DNA from: a virus
Virus record (IMG/VR): IMGVR_UViG_3300029845_000007
DNA: 64,000 nucleotides
Strand: one strand, 5' to 3'
The notes below the pieces were generated by a model that saw only the letters and a program-made list of their open reading frames with translations, ran no database searches and was not told the DNA's origin. Below are positions 943 through 59,537 of this stretch, one piece after another (position 1 is the first letter of the stretch; every line of letters begins with the position of its first letter). Made by a program: the position numbers and the translations under genes.

Positions 943-3900
943 TATTCTCTATATTTATTAACATAACATTCAATCTTCTTAATCTCTATCTTAGCTGTTC
1001 CGTCATTAATTACAAAACGCACACCTAGATATTTACCATTAATAAGATTGGATTTAAATGGTTCGTAATTCTTATCAACATCAACAGTCAATTTACCAGT
1101 AAGTCTATCTATTGGATAATTAGTAACTACTTCGTTTAGAACACTACGGAAATAATTATAATTCCATTTACCATGTTCATAATAAGGTTTAGCTGTATCG
1201 AAAGTATTACGTTCATTAACAGTAATATCTTCAAGTCTACTTATCGAAGTATTACTAAACAATAGTATCTTATTACCTGCAAAGTTAATGTCGTTAGCTT
1301 TATATAAGTCATAACTTATGTAGTTAAGTACTTTAATAGTATCGTATTCAAGATTGAATAATACATCGACTACCATAGTATTATTGTTGTCTCCTACATA
1401 GAAAGGATTCTTATTAGCAGCTATCTCAAAGTCTGTATATTTAAGATAACTCAAAGGCTTTACGAATCCTAATTGACCTATAATATTCTTCTTGTTGAAG
1501 GAACTAATATACAAATTAGTTTTTGTATTATAAAATCCTCTACATAAATAAGTATGTACACTTATCCAAGTATTAGTGACGAAATTGTAACTAAGGGTAA
1601 AGTCTGAAACATCTCCCATAAAGGAACAAATCAACCGATTATTCTCCTTATCCATTCCCATTAGTATTTGAGTATTACTAGTTAAATACTCATCTAATAT
1701 AGACTGTACTCCGTCACCTAAGTCATTTAAATTCTTCTCATCAAATCTATATAACCTCTTCTTGCTTCTGTCTAAGAATATATAGCCAGCTTCATTACAT
1801 ACGTATGCTTCAAAATCTTGTAGACCACCATATCCTTTTTCACTAGTAAATACCTCTTGATAATCAATATCAAAAGCATCAGGCATTAACATTTGAACAT
1901 CTTTGTCTTTAGTATAAAGCGTATTATCTCTATTAAAGATAAACATTGAATGTTCGCAATGAGCTATAAGATAAGTGCCAATACCAATAACGTTAATGAT
2001 ATCACCTTTATTTTCGCTAATTATCTTATAAGCATTAGGTCTAAATATTCGCCATTTATTCTCTACTGATTCATCACTAATAACATCGCTTCTACGAATA
2101 GTTTGACGGTATTCTGTAACAAAGTTACTATATAATAATTCATTATAATTAATAAATTTCTTACCTGCATAATCAAGATACATACTACTTATTTCAAATG
2201 TATCATTAATAGTAGTAGGCAATAGATGAATCATACGAACATTCTGAACGAAAGAATTATTATCAGTATGAATAGTATAGTATCTTTCATCAGGAGCTGT
2301 TTTAATAGTTTTAGCAAATAATGGATATAGCGAATAATAATTAAGAATTATTCTACTTATAGGAGTATTACCTACTCTTTCACTATCCCAATGTACTCTA
2401 GGGAAATTAGGATAAAGATTAGTATTATCCGTAGCCTTCTTAGGTATTGGGTCAGTAGTATCATAGTATACACCATTACGATTAAATGCATAAACACATG
2501 CTGTCATAAAGTAATAATTATAATTATAGATATAATCTTCATAACCATAATTATAAATATCTCCTGTTGGATTAACATACTTAATATAGCCAAGTGGAAT
2601 AAGGTCTTTATTCTCCGACATATATAAGTTATCACTTATATTAAGTAATAAACCATTTACATAACCTCTACCGTTTGTAGTATAGAATCCTAACTTTAAT
2701 GACTTATTCAAAACAAGATTAACAACAGCTTCTCTACCTGCATTATTATCATCTTTGCTATCAGCCATTATAATAGTAGAACTTTTAATAGCTCTAATAT
2801 CTCCAAATTCTTCTGAAGGATTAGATTGATTGAAATTAGCATCACTACTATAATAGTCAGTAAACATAGGACCTTTATAGGCATTGCCCATAGTATAACG
2901 ACTATCAGTAATAAAGATATTACCGGCACCTGACTTCTTTATAATATCAAATTCAGGATAATAGAAACGAATATTATTAACTTGTTCATTAAATGCAGTA
3001 TTAAAATCATCATCTCTACGTACAGGAACACCTTCACTAACTAATATAGGTTCTGTCTTTTCATAAGATATAAAATATCCTACGAACTCTTTTCTCATAG
3101 GTATGTTGTCAAATAAGAACTCTATCTGATGAATTCCTCTGTGACTAGGATTTCTAGTTCCTCTAAACATACGATTGCCATTATTGTTTTTATAAAGAGC
3201 AATACCATTAGAATTATATTTAGGAAATATATTACAGAATCTTACATTACTAATGCTATCAAATATATTAACTACATCGTGTGCATTATTAGTATTAATA
3301 TTACCATATTGACTTTTATAAGCATCAAATTTAGTCTTAATATCAGATATTAGAGTGTCTTCATTTATATCCATTGTTAATGAAGTATTACCTTCATTAG
3401 CTGTACCTAAACTAATAGTCTCTGAATAACTCATAGTATTAGGAATATTAATACCGTCAGTAATATTACCATTAGGATATACATAATGTACGAAGAAGTT
3501 ATATACGCATTGATTAATTGCATACTTAGCACTATCTGAATAAAATTCTGTATCTTCAGGTTTAGTTTCACTATCTAATATCTTAGGAGAAGCAAATCCA
3601 AAAGCATAACTAATATAACCTCCGTCAGGACCACTAACACGAAGTTCTTTATACTTATCATTATTATGCAGTTCAAGGAACTCACTACCACTAGAACGAA
3701 TACCACCTTCGCTTATTGCTAATACACCGTCTTTACCAAAAGTAGGAATATCAAGAAGTAAACCGTCATAATTACTAATTCCGTCAAGATTAAACTTCTT
3801 ATTCTTTTGGAAACAAATATATAAGTTACCTAATACTCCTTCATAGGCTTTAGTACTTTCAACACTTACTCTATCATAAATAGTATAATCTTCATTACCT

Positions 3901-9704: not shown

Positions 9705-10325
9705 TTACTTCAATTCGTTGAAATACTTCCAGAGTTTATCTTCTCCAAAATCAACGTCATCAAACCAAAAGTCGATAGCACTCTCGAATATCATATCGTC
9801 AAAGTTTCCTTTACCGAACCACTTCTCGAATAACTTACAGTAGTCGTGATATTGAGCATTAATAGCTACATATACATCAGCAACTTCTATATCTTCTTCT
9901 AGTTTATCTTTGAATTTATTACAAACTTCGTGAGCTTTTTGCATATCGTATTTTTCACCGATATATTTCTTACCGTCTTTGACATGGTACATCTCATCAA
10001 CAGTTTGCTTAGCTTCCTGTTTATTGAAGTGTTCATCACCATATTCATAACGTTCGTCTTCACCTACTCCGAGCATTCGCATAAGAAGCATACGTTCATC
10101 ATCATCATATCCTCTATGATGTTCATCGTAACCTCTATGTTCATCTCCTTCGTAGTTGTCGTAAGTCCTATATCCAATACGATTCATCATTCCTCTTCCA
10201 CGACCGCCACGACCGCTTCTTCCACGACCGCCACGAGCAAGGAAATCATTAATTCGTTCGTACATTCTATCTCTTCGAGAACGAGCACGAACATCATGGT
10301 CTGTCTCGTATGGTACTTCTCTCAT
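9705..10325 (-). CDS. RGG/Arg-Gly-rich and acidic low-complexity protein (206 aa). Possible packaged or nucleic-acid-binding protein.
   Basis: ORF. The N-terminus reads ARGGRGRSGRGGRGRG. The DNA shows the direct repeat cacgaccgccacga twice at 10190–10240. Confidence 0.6.
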   Translation of the reverse strand: MREVPYETDHDVRARSRRDRMYERINDFLARGGRGRSGRGGRGRGMMNRIGYRTYDNYEGDEHRGYDEHHRGYDDDERMLLMRMLGVGEDERYEYGDEHFNKQEAKQTVDEMYHVKDGKKYIGEKYDMQKAHEVCNKFKDKLEEDIEVADVYVAINAQYHDYCKLFEKWFGKGNFDDMIFESAIDFWFDDVDFGEDKLWKYFNELK

Positions 10326-10329
10326 AATA

Positions 10330-10701
10330 TTACTTAGTTAATAATTGTCTGAATGTTTCCAAATCAGACTGGTTGAACATAATTCCTTTATTAATAAAAG
10401 GAATAGAAATAGTTATGTTACCATTAGAAATGTTACCATTACCAAGAACAGGGATACTAAAATCAAAGTTAGGAATAGATTTGATTATTTCAATCTCTTC
10501 ATCAACAATACCTTCAATATCAATCTTACCGTCTTTAGCAATAGCGTTTATAAACTTATCAAAACTATCAATGTTATTAATAATTGCACGTTTAGCCAAA
10601 GGCTTAACTAACTTAATAGCCGGATTGGATTCGCCAAGAACATCAATCTGATTAACAATATAATCTTGCAGCTTTTGTTTTACTACACTTACTTCTATCA
10701 T
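10330..10701 (-). CDS. Hypothetical protein (123 aa).
   Basis: ORF with 1-nt coupled boundaries to both neighbours. Confidence 0.55.
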   Translation of the reverse strand: MIEVSVVKQKLQDYIVNQIDVLGESNPAIKLVKPLAKRAIINNIDSFDKFINAIAKDGKIDIEGIVDEEIEIIKSIPNFDFSIPVLGNGNISNGNITISIPFINKGIMFNQSDLETFRQLLTK

Positions 10702-11231: not shown

Positions 11232-11897
11232 TTATGCAGAAGGAGTACTAGCCGGCTGAGTAAATCCGCACGGTAGACAACCATTGGCATTTCTACCAAC
11301 AAGACCAGTTGTAGTAGGCTCATTAGGTAGACAAGTAACACCATAGATAACATTACAAGTCTTTTTATCGACATAATTGATACCTGCGGTGAAAGCTCTC
11401 TCGATTTCGCACTGGATAAGTTTATCCTGATAAGGACGAATAGCAGCGCCAACAGCAACTTGAGTTTTAAGTTCTTCAATTTGAGTTTTTAAAGCATCGT
11501 AGTTGTCACGCTGTCCTTTATATAAGCTAAAGTCGGCATCAATCTGTGACTTATACAAACCAAACATTTCTCCGTCTATTACCTGACGGTCTTGGAAACG
11601 TTGGTTCTGTTGATTCAAAGCCCACTGATACAAACCACCTTGCAGAGCAAGAGTATCTTCGCAAGACTTAGCCCATGCTTGGAAAGCAGTAGGAGCAGTA
11701 CCATTTCCACCACCAACGCCAACTACATTAATGTTTGTAGAACCGTCTCCCATAAGACCTGCACCAGTTCCGAGAACACCAGTAGAACGACGATTACCAA
11801 ATAAAGCCCAAGCTCCAAGAGCAGTACCGATAATACCAAGCGTAAGACCTGCATTAGCTTTACCGTTAACATCACGGCGACCGTACATACCGTCCAT
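11232..11897 (-). CDS. Gly-rich protein with an N-terminal TM helix and a C-terminal Cys cluster (221 aa).
   Basis: ORF. Its GC-richer codon use (ggt/gct) suggests high expression. Overlapping ORFs in other frames were judged spurious. Confidence 0.6.
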   Translation of the reverse strand: MDGMYGRRDVNGKANAGLTLGIIGTALGAWALFGNRRSTGVLGTGAGLMGDGSTNINVVGVGGGNGTAPTAFQAWAKSCEDTLALQGGLYQWALNQQNQRFQDRQVIDGEMFGLYKSQIDADFSLYKGQRDNYDALKTQIEELKTQVAVGAAIRPYQDKLIQCEIERAFTAGINYVDKKTCNVIYGVTCLPNEPTTTGLVGRNANGCLPCGFTQPASTPSA

Positions 11898-12095
11898 CCC
11901 TGCACCATTATAGCCTTCAGGAACAACTTTAACTTTTTCAATTACTTACATAATAAATAAGGTTTAGATTAATAAATTAAGAATATCTTATAGTAGCTAC
12001 TATACACTCATAACAAAGAATACTATTATAAGTTCAGACATTAATCTATTTTAGCTATAAACAATAATTTTATGAAAAAAGTTAAGTATCTCGTG

Positions 12096-12132
12096 AACAA
12101 AATAAAAGCCCCACTTGTTATAGCAGGGCTTT
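12096..12132 (-). terminator. Rho-independent terminator for minus-strand transcripts. The transcript reads AAAGCCC-loop-GGGCTTT followed by UUUUAUUUUGUU.
   Basis: 7-bp GC stem at 12105–12111 and 12126–12132. The A-run at 12096–12104 on the plus strand gives a U-run on the minus-strand transcript. It lies directly downstream of gene 12156..12467. Confidence 0.5.
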
Positions 12133-12155
12133 ATAGAGTTAATGATACAATGGAA

Positions 12156-12467
12156 TCACTCCTTTATTGGGGATTCTTCAAGAGTACTTTCAGATACAGA
12201 TTGCCATTCAGAACTGGATAACAATTCATAAAGGGCTTTATCAGAATAAGTATCATAAGGATATTTAATAGTGATACTTTCATATCCTTCTTCATCAGTA
12301 GTTACTATCCTTTCTACCTTATTAGGAAATACTTCTTGGAAATGTTGACACTTCATAAGTGCTTTATCATTATCTCTGTTTTTACGTAGAACTAAATTAA
12401 GTTCTTCGATTTTAGCTGATTCTTCTTTACCTATATCAGCAATAGGAAATACAATGTAATCAATCAT
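12156..12467 (-). CDS. Hypothetical acidic protein (103 aa).
   Basis: ORF. Confidence 0.5.
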   Translation of the reverse strand: MIDYIVFPIADIGKEESAKIEELNLVLRKNRDNDKALMKCQHFQEVFPNKVERIVTTDEEGYESITIKYPYDTYSDKALYELLSSSEWQSVSESTLEESPIKE

Positions 12468-12542: not shown

Positions 12543-15500
12543 TTAAGTATCTTGTGAGGTGTTACTTTCATTTTCTGTATTAGAAATAAATATAGGATGA
12601 TTAATATCAATTATCTCATCTTTCTCCATTAAGTTTTTTAGGAAGTTAATTTCTAGTAACGAGATAGTTTTGGAATATAGAATTGTTTTATAGATTATTC
12701 CTTTCCAATATTTACCAAGTACTAATCCTAGATTATCTTCATTTTCACCTTTTATAATAGGATTACCATTATAACTTTCAGGAGTTAAATAAATAATCTT
12801 AGAATCATCTCGTTCTATCTGATTTAATTTACCGTAACTATAAACATAATTCTTACTATTATAACAATAATCTAAAATAAAACCATTTCCAATACTACTT
12901 TCATAGATTTTATTTCCTTTAAACATTACAGTAGAATTATCATTCTTAGCATCTAAATCAACTCTTTTTATAATAGCAGTAAAATCTGTAAATATAGGAA
13001 TATTCTTATTATCAGTAAAGTCAGATACTCCGTCATAAACCAGACCGTTCTCGTATTCAGGAAGAATTTCAATAGTAATATCACAATCAAAAACTAGTTC
13101 ACCTTCTATCATAGGAGTTATTGCAAATCCTATCCAAGAATTAGTAGTTAAATCTAATAATGCGTCTGTTGGAACAAACGATTTAGGTAATTTATGAATA
13201 CCATTGCCTAAATATACTATTGATTCTTTTGTTGCATTTTCCGTAGCTAAATATTTGTAAATAAGTTTACTATTTTCTTCAAGACCTTTAACAGTAACTC
13301 TAAAAGCAGGTATCTCTTTTATATTAGCTAACGCTCCGTCTTTCTTAACATAACTATATAATAAACCATTAGCCGCATGTTTAACATTAGTTATATGAAC
13401 AATAGTACTATTAATATCATAAATATAATCTATTGCATTAGAAGTTTCCCAAGTCTTATTAGCACCTAACACTACTGGATAACCATTATAACCCGACATA
13501 CCTTCATAACCAATATTGAAGTTCTCAAGAGGATTAACACTAGTACCAGTCTTTTGTAGTGATACTTGTTCATCAATATAGCCTCTTTTTGCATCAATAT
13601 TCTTTTTACCATAGTTATCCCAATAATAATTAGGTAACGTAACTTTAGGAGTTATACCAATATAAGTGTTTAACTCTTTAATCTTATCGTCTGTTGAGAT
13701 TTCATCGAAAAGCATGAAGTCGTAGAGAGACATTTGAGCGAAATAACTATTTGAATAACTAAGTTTACCTATTGACGGAGTTATTGAATTATCAACATCA
13801 CAAGTTGCTACAATATTATGGGTAATCTTTGATAAATTACTACCGATGATATTATTGTTTATAATACCGTCAATATAAGTATTACCGTTATTATTTTGAG
13901 AATAAGCGATTACATCACCTTGTGCGTAGATACCAAATGTTTTATCTCCGGAAGCAGGTCTTTGGTCATATATAAATCCATTTAAAGTACTCCAATTCAC
14001 TTTCATCAACACTTGCTTACCACCCTTAGACAAAGTAGGAATAGTAATAAAGTCGTCTATCCCATCTAAACAGTATGCTCCTTCGTATTCACCGATTTGT
14101 TCAATAACTAAATTAGACCAGTCAACATTGGGAGTTTGAGCAAAAAATCCGTGAATTTCTTTTATATTAGTTCTTGCAGGTAACTCATTTATTCCATTTA
14201 TAAGATTTATCCAACTTCCGCCAGTATAATTAAGAACCCCGTCCTTAGGTATTCCAGAAACTCTAACTTTATACGTAGGGGAAGGAGAATTAGTATAGCC
14301 TAACCAAAATCCATTATCATAATCAAAAGATTCATCAAGATATATCTTACTATCAGTTCTTACTATACCTTTAGTTCCGTAGTCTCGAAGAGTAGTAAAA
14401 TCAACTAAATAACCATTAGCTCCACTATTAAGTTTATAAGCCGAGTTATAAATAACACCATGATTACCATGACCGGATATATCAGGAATATGACCTAGAA
14501 TCTTGTAACTAGAATTAGGAGCATGTAATAGTCTAGGAGAAAGTATACAGTTAGGTTCGTTATCATCAAAAATCCAAGTCGCTGTACAAGTAAATACCAT
14601 TTGTCGTTCAACAACATGTGGAGTACTAGTTAAAGGATTTCCATTAAGTTTAGCATTACTAACAGTATAAATATCTTTAAGAAGATTACAATCATTAAAT
14701 AAACCTATTCTAGTAATACTAGAACCTAGTTTAATTTTGTCTCCCCAAGATATTTCATTATTATTCTCATCCTTGAATCTTAATAAAACAGGATATGGCT
14801 GTACAATATCTTCATATCTAACATATTCTTGAATAGTAATATTTATCTCTTTTGGAAATACTAAAGGTATTTCTAATCTATAATAATTACCACTTGAATC
14901 TTTAGTAGGAACATAAGATTTTCCGTCAATAACAACATTAGTTACTTCATCTGAATCTTTATAAGGAGGAACAATATCCAATATTAGATTACCTGTAATA
15001 GAAGTAGAATAAAATTGTCCATTTACTAGTTTCAATGTTGTACCGTCAGTTTCCCTAATATTTGCAGTAACTGAATATTTAGATACATTAGCTTTAATAT
15101 TAGGATTCCATTGAACATAATCACTATCTTGTTCAATAACTAAATTTATCTTTTGAGGAGACTTCTTAATACCATAGAAGATTACATCATAGATAAAATC
15201 TGTATTAGACTTTTCAATAGTGATATTATTAAAGGCAGTAGAAGAAACTTTGGATATTTTATAACCGTCAAGAACAGTAATACTAGTTTTAATATTACTT
15301 CCTATTGAAATATAATCTCCTACTTTTACTACATTTGAATCTTTATCTAAATAGACTATATTCTTAATATCTATATTACTCTTAATAACAGGTCTAAATT
15401 CAACCATGTCTTTATATAGAGTTCCTGCCTTATATTTCTTTAATTGACGTTCGATTAAGAACTTATTCATAGAATAAGGAAAGGACATAAGAAAATAGAT

Positions 15501-48390: not shown

Positions 48391-48903
48391 TTTGTCCGAA
48401 TACAGTCTCATGTAATCCGATACGAACTTGTTTCTATCTCCCATGAACATCATATTATGGTTTATGATATAGACATTGTTCTTATCATTAATAGCTTTAG
48501 CTATAAAGTTAGCATCGATTAGTTGACGGATACCGTCACTTATTCTCTGTTGACTAACAGACAATTCACCAGCAATCTTAGTTTGGTTAAGTACTATCCA
48601 GTTACAACCGAAACCTATATTCCTATATATGTAATTCAACATGGATAAACCATGGGTCTTTAAATATCTTAGGTTAGACATTCCATCGAAGTACAACTGC
48701 ATAAAGTTACCTGTATATCTAACTTTATCATCTTCGATTACAACAATTGTCTTACCTGTCTTATTAGCCCATTGTTTAAGCTCGTCAAGACTGTCGTCAG
48801 AACAATCTTTAGGATTAATATTAAAAGGAAATACAGTAGGTTTGATAAGATTGTCCACTGGTTGGACTTTAGCATTAGCTTTAGCATTTGTTTCTACTTT
48901 CAT
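48388..48903 (-). CDS. Winged-HTH DNA-binding protein (171 aa). Either a small Rep-like initiator (RepL-like) or an autoregulated repressor.
   Basis: The segment ELSVSQQRISDGIRQLIDANFI is HTH-like. Iterons lie at its 3' side and two palindromic operators in its promoter region. Confidence 0.6.
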   Translation of the reverse strand: MKVETNAKANAKVQPVDNLIKPTVFPFNINPKDCSDDSLDELKQWANKTGKTIVVIEDDKVRYTGNFMQLYFDGMSNLRYLKTHGLSMLNYIYRNIGFGCNWIVLNQTKIAGELSVSQQRISDGIRQLIDANFIAKAINDKNNVYIINHNMMFMGDRNKFVSDYMRLYSDK

Positions 48904-48945
48904 AATTGTTAATTTATAGTTAAAAACTCATTTTCGGCTTCTAAA

Positions 48946-49008
48946 TTACACAGATTTGCGTGTAAAAACAAGCATTACACCTAGTATTTTACACAGATTT
49001 GCGTGTAA
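48946..49008. promoter_or_regulatory. Two copies of the 20-bp palindromic operator TTACACagatttgcGTGTAA, 43 bp apart, with an extra ATTACAC half-site between them.
   Basis: Perfect 6-bp inverted half-sites with an 8-bp spacer. They lie 40–105 bp upstream of the wHTH gene start. Confidence 0.7.
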
Positions 49009-49059
49009 TTTGAAATTCGTAACTGACTGATAATGACCGATTTAACATAAAATTAACAC

Positions 49060-50330
49060 GCTATAACAAGATAGGGAATCTTGTAAAAAATAGATTTTTA
49101 TTTTGTATATGCAAATATAATACTATTTTTTTTATTAGCTCACCTATTCGATGACTATTGTCGTAGACAATAGGAAGAAGCTCATACAATAACAACAGTA
49201 GTATCAACAATAGTATTATCAACATCAGTAGTATGAATAGTATGAATAGTATTATCAACATCAATAGGAAGAAGACTATTACTAATATCAATAGCATCAA
49301 TAGTAGTATGAATAGTAAGATATAGAGATGATAGCGAAACTACATTCCCTTAACTCAATATAACTCCTCACACTTACTAAATTAAACCTCTTAATGTTTA
49401 CTTTTGAACCTATTCAAAATCCATATAGAGTATAAATCAAATTTATTCGATTGTACTATTATCGCTATGTTTCCGATACTATATTTCCGATACTCTATCG
49501 TCATTGTTACTATCGTCATTGTTATTATATTATATTATTATACTATCACATGTTATTACTATTACTATTAGGTTTTAATCTAATCTCACTATTGCCAATC
49601 TCACTATATACTATTAGTATTATATCTTGGTTGTATTGTATGAGGTCTAGTTCCTATTCTTACAGAATAGTTCACTAGTATATTAATACTATATATAACA
49701 TCTGATAACGAGAATACCAATAGATTGAATATAAGGCTATATAATAGACTGGATAGTATTATTACCAATAGATTGGATAATAGAATAAGTATAGTAATAT
49801 GTATAAATATGTATAGATATGTATTACTATTAATATCTAGATTACTATTTGGTTTGTTACTTAGCTGGTCTAGTCCCGCTCGCAAAGCTCGCTTTTCTCC
49901 CCCATAAAGGAGCGTGATTGCTGTTACATCTTCACCTTTTATTTACCATTTAACTTATATCATTATGAATACCGATATTTATTTCTTTATAATAACTGTA
50001 TTACTATTTGTTATTACTACTCTCTTACTGAATAACTATCTCATTGATAAGAAGTCTAATATTTTGTCTATGACAATATTTATTATAGCTGTTATGGCTA
50101 TCGTTATTATCTGTGTTGCAATATTTAATCTTTCTAGTATATGACTACTTATCAATTCCATATATTTCTATCTTTAATTGGAATAGTTATATGTCTGTTG
50201 TATTTGATGTTTAATTACCTTTCTTATAAGAAGGTTTTTATCGTCCGTTCTTTAGTTCAAACTATAATAACTTATATAATAGTTATTAGCTTTATTCGTT
50301 TACTATATCGTACTATATTATTATGATATA
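49060..50330. repeat. AT-rich repeat-dense region and probable replication origin. It contains the palindrome CTATTGTCgtaGACAATAG (49156–49175). Several short motifs each occur as two or three direct copies: agtagtatgaatagta, tattatcaacatca, tttccgatact, atcgtcattgtta and accaatagattgRata.
   Basis: Read directly from the sequence. It lies in the strand-switch region. The ORFs called here are low-complexity hydrophobic translations of AT-rich repeats. Confidence 0.6.
49897..49925 (+). repeat. Copy of the GC-rich element TCTCCCCCATAAAGGAGCGTGATTGCTGT. Its AAGGAG-N4-GTG provides the start of ORF 49914..50144.
   Basis: Read directly from the sequence. Confidence 0.8.
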
Positions 50331-50378: not shown

Positions 50379-51278
50379 ATGAAAGCTGTTGTAAATGATA
50401 AAAATCATCTAACTTTTGTATCTCATCTTAATGGAGTTACTATTGTTGAATCTAGTGGTTTTATTATCGATTTAGATTATCAATGTCTTACTTCTATTTG
50501 TGAGATTTCTGATATTGGTAATAATTATAGTATTGCTGAATCTAATAGAATCTCTGAATTAGAGAAAACTATTTCTGAATTAGAAGCCGATGTTGCTAAT
50601 AAGTCTACTCAAATTAGTAAACTGTCTAGTGAATTAAATCTTCGTGCTAGAGTTATTAGTGAGAAGAACGAAGAGATTGAACAACTTAAATCTGATATTA
50701 TTAAGTTCCAAGCTGATATTGCTAATTTTCAGGCTTGTGCTGCTAATGTTTCTGATATTGAATATGAACTGAATAAATGTCGTGAAACAAATAATGCACT
50801 TACAGAAAAGTTAGAAAGTAAAACTTCTGATTTAGCTGAAAGAACTTATTGGTTCAGATATTATAGACGAGCATTTCGTGCTGTTAAGGAGTATCTTAAG
50901 CCTAATGAAAAATATGGTTTAGATTCAAGCGGTTATAATATTGTTAATAGTATTGATAGTAAATTTATAATATCATTTAAAGATACAAGTATTGCTAGTA
51001 AAGCATTTAATGAGTTAAGATATTCTATTTCTCCAAGAACTGTATTACTCAAGTATGAAAATGATATTGTTGAATATAATGTCGATGCTATGAATATCTA
51101 TTTTATTGAAGCTAATACTCCTACGGTTATTCGTAAGTTTAATGATGAAAACTTTAGTATTACTTGTTGCGATGTTTATACTGCCGAGATTACTAATGCT
51201 CTTCTTAATTGTGGTTTTCCTGCTAGTGATATTGTTTCTACTTATAAATCATATATAGCATTTAGTAATATCAATTAA
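50379..51278 (+). CDS. Early protein with a central coiled coil (299 aa).
   Basis: First long plus-strand ORF after the control region. Confidence 0.6.
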   Translation: MKAVVNDKNHLTFVSHLNGVTIVESSGFIIDLDYQCLTSICEISDIGNNYSIAESNRISELEKTISELEADVANKSTQISKLSSELNLRARVISEKNEEIEQLKSDIIKFQADIANFQACAANVSDIEYELNKCRETNNALTEKLESKTSDLAERTYWFRYYRRAFRAVKEYLKPNEKYGLDSSGYNIVNSIDSKFIISFKDTSIASKAFNELRYSISPRTVLLKYENDIVEYNVDAMNIYFIEANTPTVIRKFNDENFSITCCDVYTAEITNALLNCGFPASDIVSTYKSYIAFSNIN

Positions 51279-54036: not shown

Positions 54037-54402
54037 ATGGGATTAAGTTTCAAACTATCAGCGGTAAATGAGGAACAGAAAATTCCTCGTGAGAAAGTAA
54101 TAATGCAGATTGTTACTGGAACTATCGTTCTACATGATAACATGTATAAGTTTAAACCTAAAGATAGTGATGAATTTATTACGTTATCTGAACGTTCGTA
54201 CTCATGTAAAGGTTTTAAGACAATATATACTCGTGCATTAGATAATTATGGTAGACCTACTAAAATTGTTAGATGTACTGATGCTTATTGTGTTATGCCT
54301 AGCTGTTATATTCCATTTAAGATAGGATTACCTGTTAAGGGTTATATACTTAAATGTCGTGATAATATTGATAGATTCTTACTAAAATGCAATGAATTTT
54401 GA
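54037..54402 (+). CDS. Hypothetical protein (121 aa).
   Basis: ORF. Confidence 0.5.
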   Translation: MGLSFKLSAVNEEQKIPREKVIMQIVTGTIVLHDNMYKFKPKDSDEFITLSERSYSCKGFKTIYTRALDNYGRPTKIVRCTDAYCVMPSCYIPFKIGLPVKGYILKCRDNIDRFLLKCNEF

Positions 54403-54883
54403 AAAGTTTGATGATGCTAAGAAAGACGATAAAGTCTTAAATAGTTTTACTCGTGACCAAAAGATTGCTTATGAAAACCTAGTAGCTTTTATTGAGAAAG
54501 GTTATGTTGCAGGTGATTATAAACGTGCTCTTATTGGCTCGGCAGGTACAGGAAAAACATATATGATACGTGAAGTAATTAGACGATGCGGATTATCTAA
54601 ATCCGTTATTGGTCTTGCAGCTCCTACACATAAAGCTGCTCGTGTACTTCGTGCATCTACTGGATATTCTACGTCTACTGTGGCTAGTGATTTAGGTTTA
54701 AGACTTAATACTGATGTTACTGATTTTGATATTAATAATCCTCCTTTTGACCCATTAGCTGAAAAGAAGATTAAGCAATATAAGTTATATATTGTTGATG
54801 AAGCGTCTATGATTGGTATTAATCTTAAAACTCTTATAGAAAGAGAATGTGAACAGTTTGGTTGTATGCTTATTTATATGGGT
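54392..54883 (+). CDS. SF1 (RecD/Dda/Pif1-like) DNA helicase, exon 1. It carries Walker A GSAGTGKT and Walker B LYIVDEASM.
   Basis: The motifs are read directly. The exon ends in ...ATG GGT, whose last nucleotide U is the group I 5' splice site. Confidence 0.7.
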
Positions 54884-56049
54884 AAATAGTTATTGCCCAG
54901 TTTAAACTCTTCTAATTGCTGGAAACTCGTGAAGGTAATAGTACTACAACATAAGTTGAAAAACTAAGTGTGAATGTTAGAAAAACTATTATTATATGAC
55001 AATCAGCAGCGAAGTCTCTAAATTATGTTCATTTACATAATAAGAGAAACGTTCATCGACTATCCCGTAAGGGAGTACAATTCTATGGAATTGGAAACGG
55101 AGAGAGTTGTATATTTGCAATTTACTCCTTATATTTACATAAATTTTTAAAATGTAAATATTATGAGCAAAAAAGAAACTCCAAAAATGTATGGTTTAGA
55201 ACATAAGTTAAATTCTAAGTGTGTTTATATTCATTTTATTAAATCTATTAATATTCCTATTTATATAGGAGAAGGAAATGTACAAAGAGCTTTTGATTTT
55301 ACTAATAGAAATAATAAATGGAAAGAACTAGTTAGCAATCTTAATGATGTTCATGTTGAAATAGTTGCTATTGATATTAATAAAGAAGAATGTGTAGAAA
55401 TAGAAAAGCAGCTAATAAAACTATATAAAGAAAGAGGATTTGAACTTGTTAATTGTAATAATGGAGGTAGTTGTATAGGAACTTTTGGAGAAGATAATTA
55501 TTTTTATAATAAACATTTGTTTGGTAAAGACAATGGTAATTATGGAAATAAATATTCTAAAAATCCTTTATCCATTGAAGTTATTCAGTTAGATATATTT
55601 GGAAATATTATTAAGAAGTGGAGTTCTGCACAAGAAGCAGAAGAAATAGGTGGATATATTGCTAGTTGTATTAATAGTTGTTGTAATGGTAAACGTCAAC
55701 TACACAATAATTATCAATGGATATTTGCTTATAATTATAATCCTAATAAATCTTATGAATATATTCCTAAAGGAACTTCTATGAGAATTTATTTAGCTAT
55801 TGGTATAAGAGATAATAAATCTTATATTCATGGTATATATAATTCTAGTAATGAACTTACTAATGAAGGATTTAATCCTAAACTAGTTCAACAAGTTGTT
55901 ACTGGTTATAAAAAGTCTCATAAAGGTTTTGCTTTTGTTGATTTCTTTAGATTAACTAAAGACCAACAAGAAAAATATAAAGAACAAGTTATTGCAAAAT
56001 TATATAGCTAAGATATAGTCAGACTATTATAGAAATATAGTAGGTTATG
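54884..56049 (+). mobile_element. Group I self-splicing intron (1166 nt) interrupting the helicase gene. It carries a GIY-YIG homing endonuclease ORF.
   Basis: Splicing at 54883|56050 rebuilds helicase motif III as GDNYQLQPV. The P1 helix pairs exon TGGGU with intron GCCCA (intron nt 12–16) through a U.G wobble at the splice site. The P10 helix pairs 3' exon GAUAAC with intron GUUAUU immediately 5' of the guide sequence. The intron ends in G (omega G at 56049). Confidence 0.7.
55163..56011 (+). CDS. GIY-YIG homing endonuclease with a C-terminal NUMOD3-like DNA-binding motif (282 aa).
   Basis: The segment CVYIHF...PIYIGEG has the conserved Arg and Glu downstream. SAQEAEEIGGYIASCINSCCNGKRQLHNNYQWIF matches a NUMOD3 motif. 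Asn/Lys-rich, T4 Seg/I-Tev-like composition. Confidence 0.75.
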   Translation: MSKKETPKMYGLEHKLNSKCVYIHFIKSINIPIYIGEGNVQRAFDFTNRNNKWKELVSNLNDVHVEIVAIDINKEECVEIEKQLIKLYKERGFELVNCNNGGSCIGTFGEDNYFYNKHLFGKDNGNYGNKYSKNPLSIEVIQLDIFGNIIKKWSSAQEAEEIGGYIASCINSCCNGKRQLHNNYQWIFAYNYNPNKSYEYIPKGTSMRIYLAIGIRDNKSYIHGIYNSSNELTNEGFNPKLVQQVVTGYKKSHKGFAFVDFFRLTKDQQEKYKEQVIAKLYS

Positions 56050-57015
56050 GATAACTATCAACTTCAACCAGTTAAAGAATCTCGTTCACGTTGTTTTGAT
56101 AATGTTAAGTTTTATACTCTTAGACAGATTGTTAGACAAGAAGAAGATAATCCTGTTAGTGAGTTATTAAAGATACTAAGAAAAGATATTGATAATAGGA
56201 GTTGGAAATTCCTAGAATATATCAATAAAAACAGATATGCTTTCGATTCAACTCAAACTAAAGGATATTATACTTGTGGTGCATACGAGTTTCAATCTCT
56301 TGTAATAGACGGATTTTATAATGAAGAGTTTACTAGAGATGTTGATACTTGTCGATTAATAACTTATACTAATAAATCTGTATCTGAATGGAATAAATTT
56401 ATTCGTAACAATATCATCGAAGGTAGTGATAAAGCAATTCTAACTCGTAATGATTTAGTAATGTCTTATAATACTTTTGTTGATGAGTTTAAAGATACTA
56501 TTATTGTAAATTCTGAAGATTATATAATACATGATATTAAGAATTTTACTAATAAAGATGAAATCTTTGGATTCAATGTTACGTTCATTCAAGTTAATGG
56601 TGGTAATAGAACTAAACCTTTATTTGTAGTAGACCATTCTAATTTAAATAATGTTATGCTTTATTATAAGTTAGGTGAAACTTATATTCAAAATGCAATT
56701 AATGCAGAGAAATATAATAGAAGTAAGCGTTGGAAGGAATACTATGACTTTAGAGAGAGGAACTTGTTACTAGTTAACTTATTAGATAGGTCTACTGGTA
56801 AGATTAAGTTTAGTCGTGACTTAGATTATGGATTTGCTCTTACAGCTAATAAAGCTCAAGGAAGTACTTATTTTGATGTATATGTAGATATAAATGATAT
56901 TGTATTTGATATGCGTACTGGTAATCCGTGGGGAAATATAGATGAAACTCTTCGTAGATTATATACTGCTTGTAGTAGATGCAAAAATCGTTTATATTTG
57001 TGTTACGGTAAATAA
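56050..57015 (+). CDS. SF1 DNA helicase, exon 2. It carries motif III (G)DNYQLQPV, motif V ALTANKAQGSTY and motif VI YTACSRCKNRL.
   Basis: The motifs are read directly. It is in frame with exon 1 after intron removal, giving a 486-aa product. Confidence 0.7.
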   Translation, partial: DNYQLQPVKESRSRCFDNVKFYTLRQIVRQEEDNPVSELLKILRKDIDNRSWKFLEYINKNRYAFDSTQTKGYYTCGAYEFQSLVIDGFYNEEFTRDVDTCRLITYTNKSVSEWNKFIRNNIIEGSDKAILTRNDLVMSYNTFVDEFKDTIIVNSEDYIIHDIKNFTNKDEIFGFNVTFIQVNGGNRTKPLFVVDHSNLNNVMLYYKLGETYIQNAINAEKYNRSKRWKEYYDFRERNLLLVNLLDRSTGKIKFSRDLDYGFALTANKAQGSTYFDVYVDINDIVFDMRTGNPWGNIDETLRRLYTACSRCKNRLYLCYGK

Positions 57016-59299: not shown

Positions 59300-59537
59300 T
59301 AAAATGGATATAGAAAAGATATGTATAGCTAATCTTGGAAAAGAGATTATGTATGGTAGACTTAAAGGAATGATAGTAGGTTATGATACTATATTAAAAT
59401 ATTTAATCATTTCTTTTACTAATAACTATGGTTGGAACTTTTTAATAGATAATAGTGTTATTCTATTAAATAGTCCTCTTAATCATAGTTATGTTCTTAT
59501 TAATCCTGAATATTATAAAGGACAACTTGTCTTATGA
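59292..59537 (+). CDS. Small hypothetical protein (81 aa).
   Basis: ORF coupled to neighbours by ATGA overlaps. Confidence 0.35.
   Translation: MIDKMDIEKICIANLGKEIMYGRLKGMIVGYDTILKYLIISFTNNYGWNFLIDNSVILLNSPLNHSYVLINPEYYKGQLVL

Follow-up and report, generated by a model that had tools for sequence, protein, structure and literature searches.

A probable mobile group I intron of the IA type in motif III of a Dda-like helicase gene of a crAss-like phage

The 64,000-nucleotide (nt) stretch of viral DNA recorded in IMG/VR as IMGVR_UViG_3300029845_000007, hereafter the window, carries on its plus strand two open reading frames (ORFs) that each resemble half of one helicase, and between them a third ORF that resembles a homing endonuclease. 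This raises the question of whether the helicase gene has been broken into separate genes or whether the intervening DNA is an element that is spliced from the transcript. From sequence comparison we conclude that positions 54884-56049 are very probably a mobile group I intron of the IA type, with the hairpins P7.1 and P7.2 and without P2, which interrupts motif III of a gene for a Dda-like SF1B helicase.

The window belongs to a Jahgtovirus-like crAss phage. In BLAST searches 54392-57015 matches the Jahgtovirus genomes cr107_1 (94.6% nucleotide identity) and Bacteroides phage crAss002 (89%), both of which are placed by record taxonomy in the genus Jahgtovirus, family Intestiviridae; they presumably belong to the alpha group of crAss-like phages. 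The query cover of this region is only 55-56% in either genome, because the 'Dda-like helicase' is a single uninterrupted coding sequence (CDS) of 1458 nt in both. When the whole window was searched, the complete cr107_1 genome proved colinear with most of it; the window segments with no or weak match to cr107_1 lie at 9890-10690, 11448-12203, 12631-15373, 48391-49147, 50535-50974 and 59328-59533.

The ORFs at 54392-54889 (165 amino acids) and 56047-57015 (322 amino acids) are, judged by homology, the two halves of one SF1B (Dda-like) helicase, with the Pfam domains AAA_30 and AAA_19 in the first and UvrD_C_2 in the second. In the profile of PHROG 325 (Dda-like helicase) the first half matches up to position 609 and the second from position 609. 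The gene is therefore described below as two exons and an intron:

54392..54883, plus strand: helicase exon 1, amino acids 1-164, with Walker A GSAGTGKT and the C-terminal end ...LIYMG.
54884..56049, plus strand: putative group I intron, IA type, 1166 nt; cr107_1 and crAss002 are without it.
56050..57015, plus strand: helicase exon 2, amino acids 165-485 plus stop, starting with motif III DNYQLQPV; its first six bases, GAUAAC, take part in P10.

Joining 54883 to 56050 gives an ORF of 1458 nt and 485 amino acids that reads LIYMG|DNYQLQPV across the junction, so that motif III is restored and both Walker A and motif III (GDxxQLxPV) lie in a continuous helicase core. The joined ORF is equal in length to the uninterrupted helicase genes of cr107_1 (L001, 3001-4458) and crAss002 (L002, 3001-4458) and aligns with them without gaps, motif III being GDNYQLPPV in the former and GDAHQLQPV in the latter. 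The joined protein also aligns without a break to the solved SF1B helicase 8jx6 over residues 16-481, and to T4 Dda (3upu) over residues 37-304, which span the junction. In the whole-window BLAST search, 54884-56049 is a clean insertion between the adjacent cr107_1 bases 88077 and 88076, and the boundary cannot be slid by even one base, because the flanking bases differ; the surroundings of the insertion site in the intron-less cr107_1 and crAss002 alleles read ...TATATGGGT|GATAAT.... The last base of exon 1 is T54883 and the final base of the intron is G56049. An earlier sequence-only reading of this DNA had proposed that the two ORFs join at 54883|56050 into one SF1 helicase, had named the P1 and P10 pairings, the last exon U and the terminal G, and had suggested a comparison with intron-less alleles; the colinear reading frame supports the join, every coordinate and pairing is correct in the sequence, and cr107_1 and crAss002 do carry a single uninterrupted gene. 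An intein was rejected, since the frame of exon 1 closes two codons inside the insertion (AAA TAG) and since the insertion contains a ribozyme core.

The elements of this ribozyme, on which the case for an intron rests, are as follows:

54879..54899, plus strand: P1 hairpin, in which exon UGGGU (54879-54883) pairs with the guide GCCCA (54895-54899), the 5' splice site being marked by the pair U54883·G54895.
54907..54912, plus strand: P3 5' strand CUCUUC, paired with GGAGAG at 55099-55104; RF00028 and covariation.
54917..55052, plus strand: P4-P5-P6 domain, in which P4 is formed by UGCUGG (54917-54922) and UCAGCA (55003-55008), with an extended P5 arm between them.
55009..55052, plus strand: P6/P6a/P6b, inside the P4-P5-P6 domain.
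55058..55062, plus strand: P7 5' strand GACUA, a pseudoknot with UAGUC at 56016-56020, invariant in 11 of 11 sequences.
55063..55093, plus strand: P7.1 (55063-55066/55071-55074) and P7.2 (55078-55083/55088-55093).
55099..55104, plus strand: P3 3' strand GGAGAG; RF00028 and covariation.
55105..55121, plus strand: P8 5' strand AGUUGUAUAUUUGCAAU; eight of nine tested pairs co-vary.
55991..56009, plus strand: P8 3' strand AUUGCAAAAUUAUAUAGCU, overlapping the final codons and stop of the endonuclease ORF.
56010..56020, plus strand: J8/7 and P7 3' strand (AAGAUAUAGUC); RF00028 and covariation.
56024..56043, plus strand: P9 hairpin CUAUUAUA-GAAA-UAUAGUAG; seven of eight pairs co-vary.
56049, plus strand: omega G, the terminal guanosine of the intron, which is G in 14 of 15 related introns.

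The conserved catalytic core is complete in the window copy, comprising P3-P8, the P3/P7 pseudoknot, J4/5, J6/7 and J8/7, and by homology the P7 helix would be the guanosine-binding site. With RF00028 at a permissive E-value over 54700-56200, the plus strand gave one match at 54907-55104 (48.4 bits, E 7e-11, model positions 50-157, covering P3, P4, P5, P6, P7 and P3') and a second at 56010-56040 (19.2 bits, model positions 221-251, covering J8/7, P7' and P9). P3 begins 7 nt after P1, leaving no P2, and the P1 loop holds the P10 guide GUUAUU (54889-54894), which forms six of six pairs with GAUAAC at the start of exon 2 (56050-56055). Relative to the Rfam consensus there is a 33-nt insertion between P7 and P3', which forms the two hairpins P7.1 and P7.2, both of which co-vary. 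Extra hairpins at this place are the mark of subgroup IA in the Michel-Westhof classification, and on the strength of P7.1 and P7.2 and of that classification the intron is assigned to subgroup IA (IA2-like). When a construct with the ORF deleted was folded, the minimum-energy structure contained P1, P3, P4, P5, P6, P7.1, P7.2, P8 and P9.

Fourteen further introns were examined: 13 occupy the same helicase site, in crAss-like phages other than that of the window, and the remaining one lies in a PolB gene. For covariation, 11 related introns were aligned after the ORF loop had been removed by hand, with P7 and P10 counted as pseudoknots. In this set standard pairs make up 92.1% of cells, compared with 37-44% after the 3' partners have been shifted by 1-3 columns, and both sides change in 51 of 94 pairs, compared with 8-18 after such a shift, a comparison in which hand-made constructs and a structure taken partly from the window sequence favour the in-register count over the slid controls; nevertheless, the margin is large. 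None of 500 shuffles matched the observed values on any of five measures. All cells of P3 are paired (100%) and five of its six pairs show compensatory changes, while P4 and P7 are invariant.

The guide pairings with both exons change in the same manner. In an ungapped tabulation, the U·G pair at the splice site is invariant in 12 of 12 related introns and kept in two more variants, and the neighbouring P1 pairs co-vary, with the exon/guide variants UGGGU/GCCCA, UCGGU/GCCGA, GUGGGU/GCUCAC and CGACGU/GCGUCG. Given this constancy of the U·G pair, and guides that follow the changes of the exon sequence, the P1 pairing is not a product of chance. For P10 there are at least seven combinations of guide and exon 2, namely GUUAUU/GAUAAC, ACUAUU/GAUAGU, UGAAUU/GAUUCA, AUCAUU/GAUGAU, GCGUU/GACGC, AGAAUU/GAUUCU and GCAUU/GAUGC.

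The distribution of the element points to mobility, as the sequence-only reading had also claimed, since it is present in some close relatives and absent from others at the identical site. It occurs in L128-L131 and in nine more distant helicases (L124-L127 and L132-L136), and is absent from crAss002 and from cr107_1, whose helicase exons are 94.5% identical to those of the window. All 16 loci fetched by means of the endonuclease carry a member of its family between two halves of the SF1B helicase, and although at some of these loci the helicase has no more than 33-50% identity to that of the window, the insertion site is unchanged; the junctions derived for 13 loci (L124, L126-L128, L131-L136, L153-L155) all fall at the G|D codon boundary. 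Between the window and L128-L130 the introns are 96-97% identical and the helicase exons only about 89%, and an intron that is more conserved than its exons fits horizontal spread. Furthermore, exon 2 differs from cr107_1 by seven mismatches in its first 30 nt (56050-56079) and by none in the next 150 nt, and the same 30-nt stretch is also mosaic among the intron-containing L128 and L131. This mosaic patch beside the insertion site may be a footprint of co-conversion or of the target site.

In two of the distant loci, L124 and L125 (Logan SRR22514078_1556 and SRR22514072_3098), the N-terminal half of the helicase (681-2228) is 515 amino acids long and has LAGLIDADG/Hom_end Pfam matches. In tblastn searches, residues 1-56 of the window helicase fall at 681-848 of these contigs and residues 35-194 at 1854-2303, a split placement that suggests an intein-like insert at or next to the Walker A of a gene that also carries the motif III intron.

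The core is shared with introns that lack an ORF. RF00028 spans such phage introns, which were selected for having the P4/P6 core sequence in common with the window, from end to end, with 23 matches of 55-107 bits in 19 of 20 loci scanned, and the P4...P6 core pattern AATTGCTGGAAAC(40-70 nt)GACAATCAGCAGC is found exactly in more than 120 viral contigs among the matches listed (L004-L123, IMG/VR). Some of these full RF00028 introns are clustered, with three within 1.6 kb in L023 (139-1720) and two each in L058, L080, L082 and L099. A closer relative is the intron in the human-gut phage scaffold GenBank MT838267.1 (L003, 1638-2699, unannotated), which is inserted into the motif A sequence of a DNA polymerase of family B (PolB; DxxSxYPS, HADV|SSYYPS) and whose ribozyme core is 86% identical to that of the window over 172 nt. 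Despite this identity, an Rfam scan by E-value over the whole L003 locus returned nothing, although sensitivity may drop on longer input.

The ORF within the intron, and a hairpin that precedes it, are as follows:

55163..56011, plus strand: homing endonuclease ORF, putative, 282 amino acids, with an N-terminal GIY-YIG domain (about amino acids 18-100), a low-confidence linker (amino acids 99-132) and probable C-terminal DNA-binding modules like those of I-HmuI/NUMOD1.
55133..55159, plus strand: conserved hairpin of 8 bp (AUUUACAU ... AUGUAAAU), with its end 3 nt upstream of the endonuclease AUG.

It had been suggested that this ORF fills the 3' part of the intron. A 282-amino-acid ORF does lie inside the intron, but it is looped out of P8, such that its last ~19 nt including the stop codon are the P8 3' strand, and 38 nt of ribozyme (J8/7, P7', P9 and the terminal G) follow the stop. 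The label GIY-YIG/NUMOD3 given to its product was likewise right in its first half only. A GIY-YIG assignment is supported by hhalign, by the predicted fold, which matches the catalytic domain of I-TevI, and by conserved residues; NUMOD3 (PF07460) was rejected, as the window protein does not match it at E ≤ 0.1. The protein collection from metagenomes holds 37 homologues, and in the alignment of 35 of them Y22, H24, Y34, G36, G38, R42, E81 and N97 are invariant (motifs VY22xH and Y34-I-G36), which in sequence terms is the catalytic pattern of GIY-YIG enzymes, made up of two Tyr motifs together with Arg, Glu and Asn as catalytic residues. Aligned by hhalign with the endonuclease of the PolB intron, which itself passes the Pfam GIY-YIG model (E 6.9e-10), the family matches in both the catalytic and DNA-binding parts (probability 92%, E 5.6e-7) and its conserved residues fall on the motifs of that enzyme. 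For the DNA-binding part, the window protein has a weak Pfam match to the I-HmuI NUMOD-like domain (E 9.5e-4; the candidate modules, I-HmuI-type NUMOD-like and NUMOD1, are PF22083 and PF07453), and family-wide matches at E ≤ 0.1 were to I-HmuI_NUMOD-like in 30 of 35 members, to GIY-YIG in 3 and to NUMOD3 in a single weak case (E 0.048). In the GenBank phage collection no close homologue was found, the best matches being 32-36% identical. The ratio of non-synonymous to synonymous substitution (dN/dS) between four alleles is 0.23-0.32, indicating purifying selection. By its residues and modelled fold, the product thus appears to be a divergent, functional-looking GIY-YIG homing endonuclease with I-HmuI/NUMOD1-like modules rather than a NUMOD3 protein.

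The hairpin ahead of the ORF is kept in L126 by two compensatory pair changes (AUUUGUAU/AUACAAAU) and may be a translational control element for expression of the endonuclease. The P8 5' strand also contains TATATTTG at 55110-55117, which agrees with TAnnTTTG, the -7 promoter motif of Bacteroides; a separate promoter for the endonuclease might thus lie within the intron, though such a match could easily arise by chance in an AT-rich genome.

Besides the bias in the covariation count, a number of results weigh against the interpretation as an active intron with a homing endonuclease. Rfam at its gathering threshold gave no match in the whole window, and the best RF00028 piece, at 48.4 bits, stays under the cut-off of 50 bits; this low score is attributed to the 849-nt ORF in the P8 loop, which splits the ribozyme into two pieces, and while the gathering run was empty the P3-P7 core, which the sequence-only reading had looked to as decisive alongside the score, is present in the two permissive matches. 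The one related intron without a terminal G, L127 (ENA ERZ28637838 scaffold_204, 2208-3442), has A as its last base when the 3' junction preserves the frame (...UAUUACA|GAUUCA), with P1 intact (UCGGU/GCCGA) and P10 a perfect 6 bp (UGAAUU/GAUUCA); this copy may be inactive, an assembly error or a case of an unusual 3' splice site, and not every copy of the intron therefore need be active. For the endonuclease, the Pfam GIY-YIG model (PF01541) gives the window protein 15.7 bits (E 0.018), below the cut-off of 22.6, and the family profile found nothing among PDB sequences even at E ≤ 10, for which reason the fold comparison was needed.

These points are the basis of the alternatives that have to be considered. 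The one that survives best, while still unlikely, holds that the intron splices and that its ORF no longer encodes a homing endonuclease, the product being, for example, maturase-like or purely DNA-binding. This would account for the sub-threshold Pfam score and for the few family members (3/35) with a GIY-YIG match, but not for catalytic Tyr, Arg, Glu and Asn that are invariant in 35 homologues or for a predicted fold that matches I-TevI, and the combination of introns more conserved than their exons and a patchy presence among close relatives indicates recent mobility.

It is considerably less probable that the intron has decayed and no longer splices, with the helicase left as a pseudogene or a dispensable gene. 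The Rfam score slightly under threshold and the missing terminal G of L127 could be read in this way; however, the window copy keeps all core helices, the U·G pair and the terminal G, and the compensatory changes across lineages imply continued selection on pairing. Moreover, both exons are open and retain 94.5% nucleotide identity to the intact cr107_1 gene, and the endonuclease is under purifying selection.

Least probable of all, by a little, is a gene in pieces, as in the split nrdA of Aeromonas phage Aeh1, in which a free-standing homing endonuclease gene divides the helicase into two polypeptides that reassemble without splicing: an in-frame ATG at 56047, one codon before exon 2, does start the second half in the window and gene callers do list the halves as separate genes on related contigs, but that ATG is not conserved (L124 ends ...UUCG|GAU and L126 ...UACG|GAU, and their C-terminal halves are called from starts over 100 nt downstream), the ORF is flanked by a complete ribozyme core that shows compensatory changes, guides that co-vary with both exons would have no purpose without splicing, and the break lies within motif III, where it separates the G from the D of GDxxQLxPV.

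If 54884-56049 is indeed a mobile group I intron, its behaviour can be proposed from that of the group I intron family. The helicase pre-mRNA would fold into the ribozyme, and an external guanosine bound at P7 would attack after U54883, held in the U·G pair of P1. With exon 2 aligned by P10, the free 3'-OH of exon 1 would then attack after G56049, and the exons so joined would form the mRNA of the 485-amino-acid helicase. During mixed infection the endonuclease would cut an intron-less helicase allele near the insertion site, and repair templated by an intron-containing genome would transfer the intron, with some of the exon beside it, to the cleaved allele (homing).

A broader proposal is offered tentatively and with rather more doubt than confidence: the ribozyme scaffold could serve Bacteroides phages of the gut as a mobile chassis that is used repeatedly, the endonuclease family could be a GIY-YIG lineage of new target specificity, as yet uncharacterised, and translation and splicing could be coupled. 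The first part is suggested by nearly the same core in helicase motif III and PolB motif A, with re-tuned guides and distantly related endonucleases, which suggests that the ribozyme and the endonuclease are swapped independently of each other and that further conserved motifs are being colonised by the intron. The endonuclease family, for its part, is confined to the SF1B motif III site in all of the loci checked (16/16). The coupling could follow from the position of the 3' end of the endonuclease gene, which is embedded in P8.

Our understanding of group I introns is unchanged by this finding. Gene callers and deposited crAss-like genomes list two genes and an unnamed ORF at such loci, and the junction allows one helicase of 485 amino acids to be annotated instead. 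Intron-plus and intron-less alleles that co-circulate in near-identical phages offer a natural marker of co-infection and recombination in the most abundant viruses of the human gut, and the endonuclease, a divergent GIY-YIG enzyme whose natural target is defined, could be characterised. In addition, relatives of crAss002 of the Intestiviridae type, presumably the alpha group, appear to harbour mobile introns. An earlier account had this group free of such insertions (PMC7886860).

Self-splicing group I introns with endonuclease ORFs have been reported in crAss-like phages, inserted in core genes for replication and structure (Yutin et al. 2021, PMC7886860), where the groups given for them were Delta and Zeta (MCP, PolB, the primase, as well as ATP_43b) and alpha-gamma genomes were stated to be without them. 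Unlike those introns, the one in the window occupies the SF1 helicase gene, in a phage related to cr107_1 and crAss002, and no description of an intron in SF1 helicase motif III of Jahgtovirus-like phages was found in the searched literature. Since crAss-like phages were already known to have endonuclease-bearing group I introns, the window intron is a well-resolved case and not one that would surprise a specialist. A cultured phage of the Intestiviridae offers a parallel: 'Rudgehvirus jaberico' (NC_091965.1, L156, 1006-3345), which grows on Bacteroides cellulosilyticus, has two 'DNA helicase' CDSs split by a 'GIY endonuclease', the split gene being a different helicase, downstream of PolB. 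RF00028 matches lie on both sides of the endonuclease ORF, in two pieces as in the window (2143-2340, 43.5 bits; 2946-2991, 19.1 bits), and from its sequence the locus probably contains an intron that has been left unannotated in a cultivable member of the family.

The PolB motif A intron of MT838267 is the nearest counterpart in structure. Beyond the shared core, both have a GIY-YIG ORF in P8 and the same tail of J8/7, P7' and P9, but the gene differs, the guides of L003 are GCGUCG (P1) and GACGAU (P10), and the endonucleases are only about 27% identical, that of L003 being canonical. Among classical systems the comparison is with the td intron of phage T4 and its endonuclease I-TevI. Both are IA-type group I introns with P7.1/P7.2 and a GIY-YIG endonuclease ORF, both interrupt a conserved motif of a DNA-metabolism gene, and in both the ORF is looped from a peripheral helix and its end overlaps a ribozyme pairing. 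The td ORF sits in the P6 region, unlike that of the window, which sits in P8, and the window intron, unlike td, is without P2. The catalytic domain is too divergent for the Pfam threshold, in contrast to that of I-TevI, and the DNA-binding part is apparently I-HmuI/NUMOD1-like where I-TevI has a zinc finger plus a helix-turn-helix. Finally, the interrupted gene encodes an SF1B helicase here and thymidylate synthase in td, and the window phage, unlike T4, is a Bacteroides phage.

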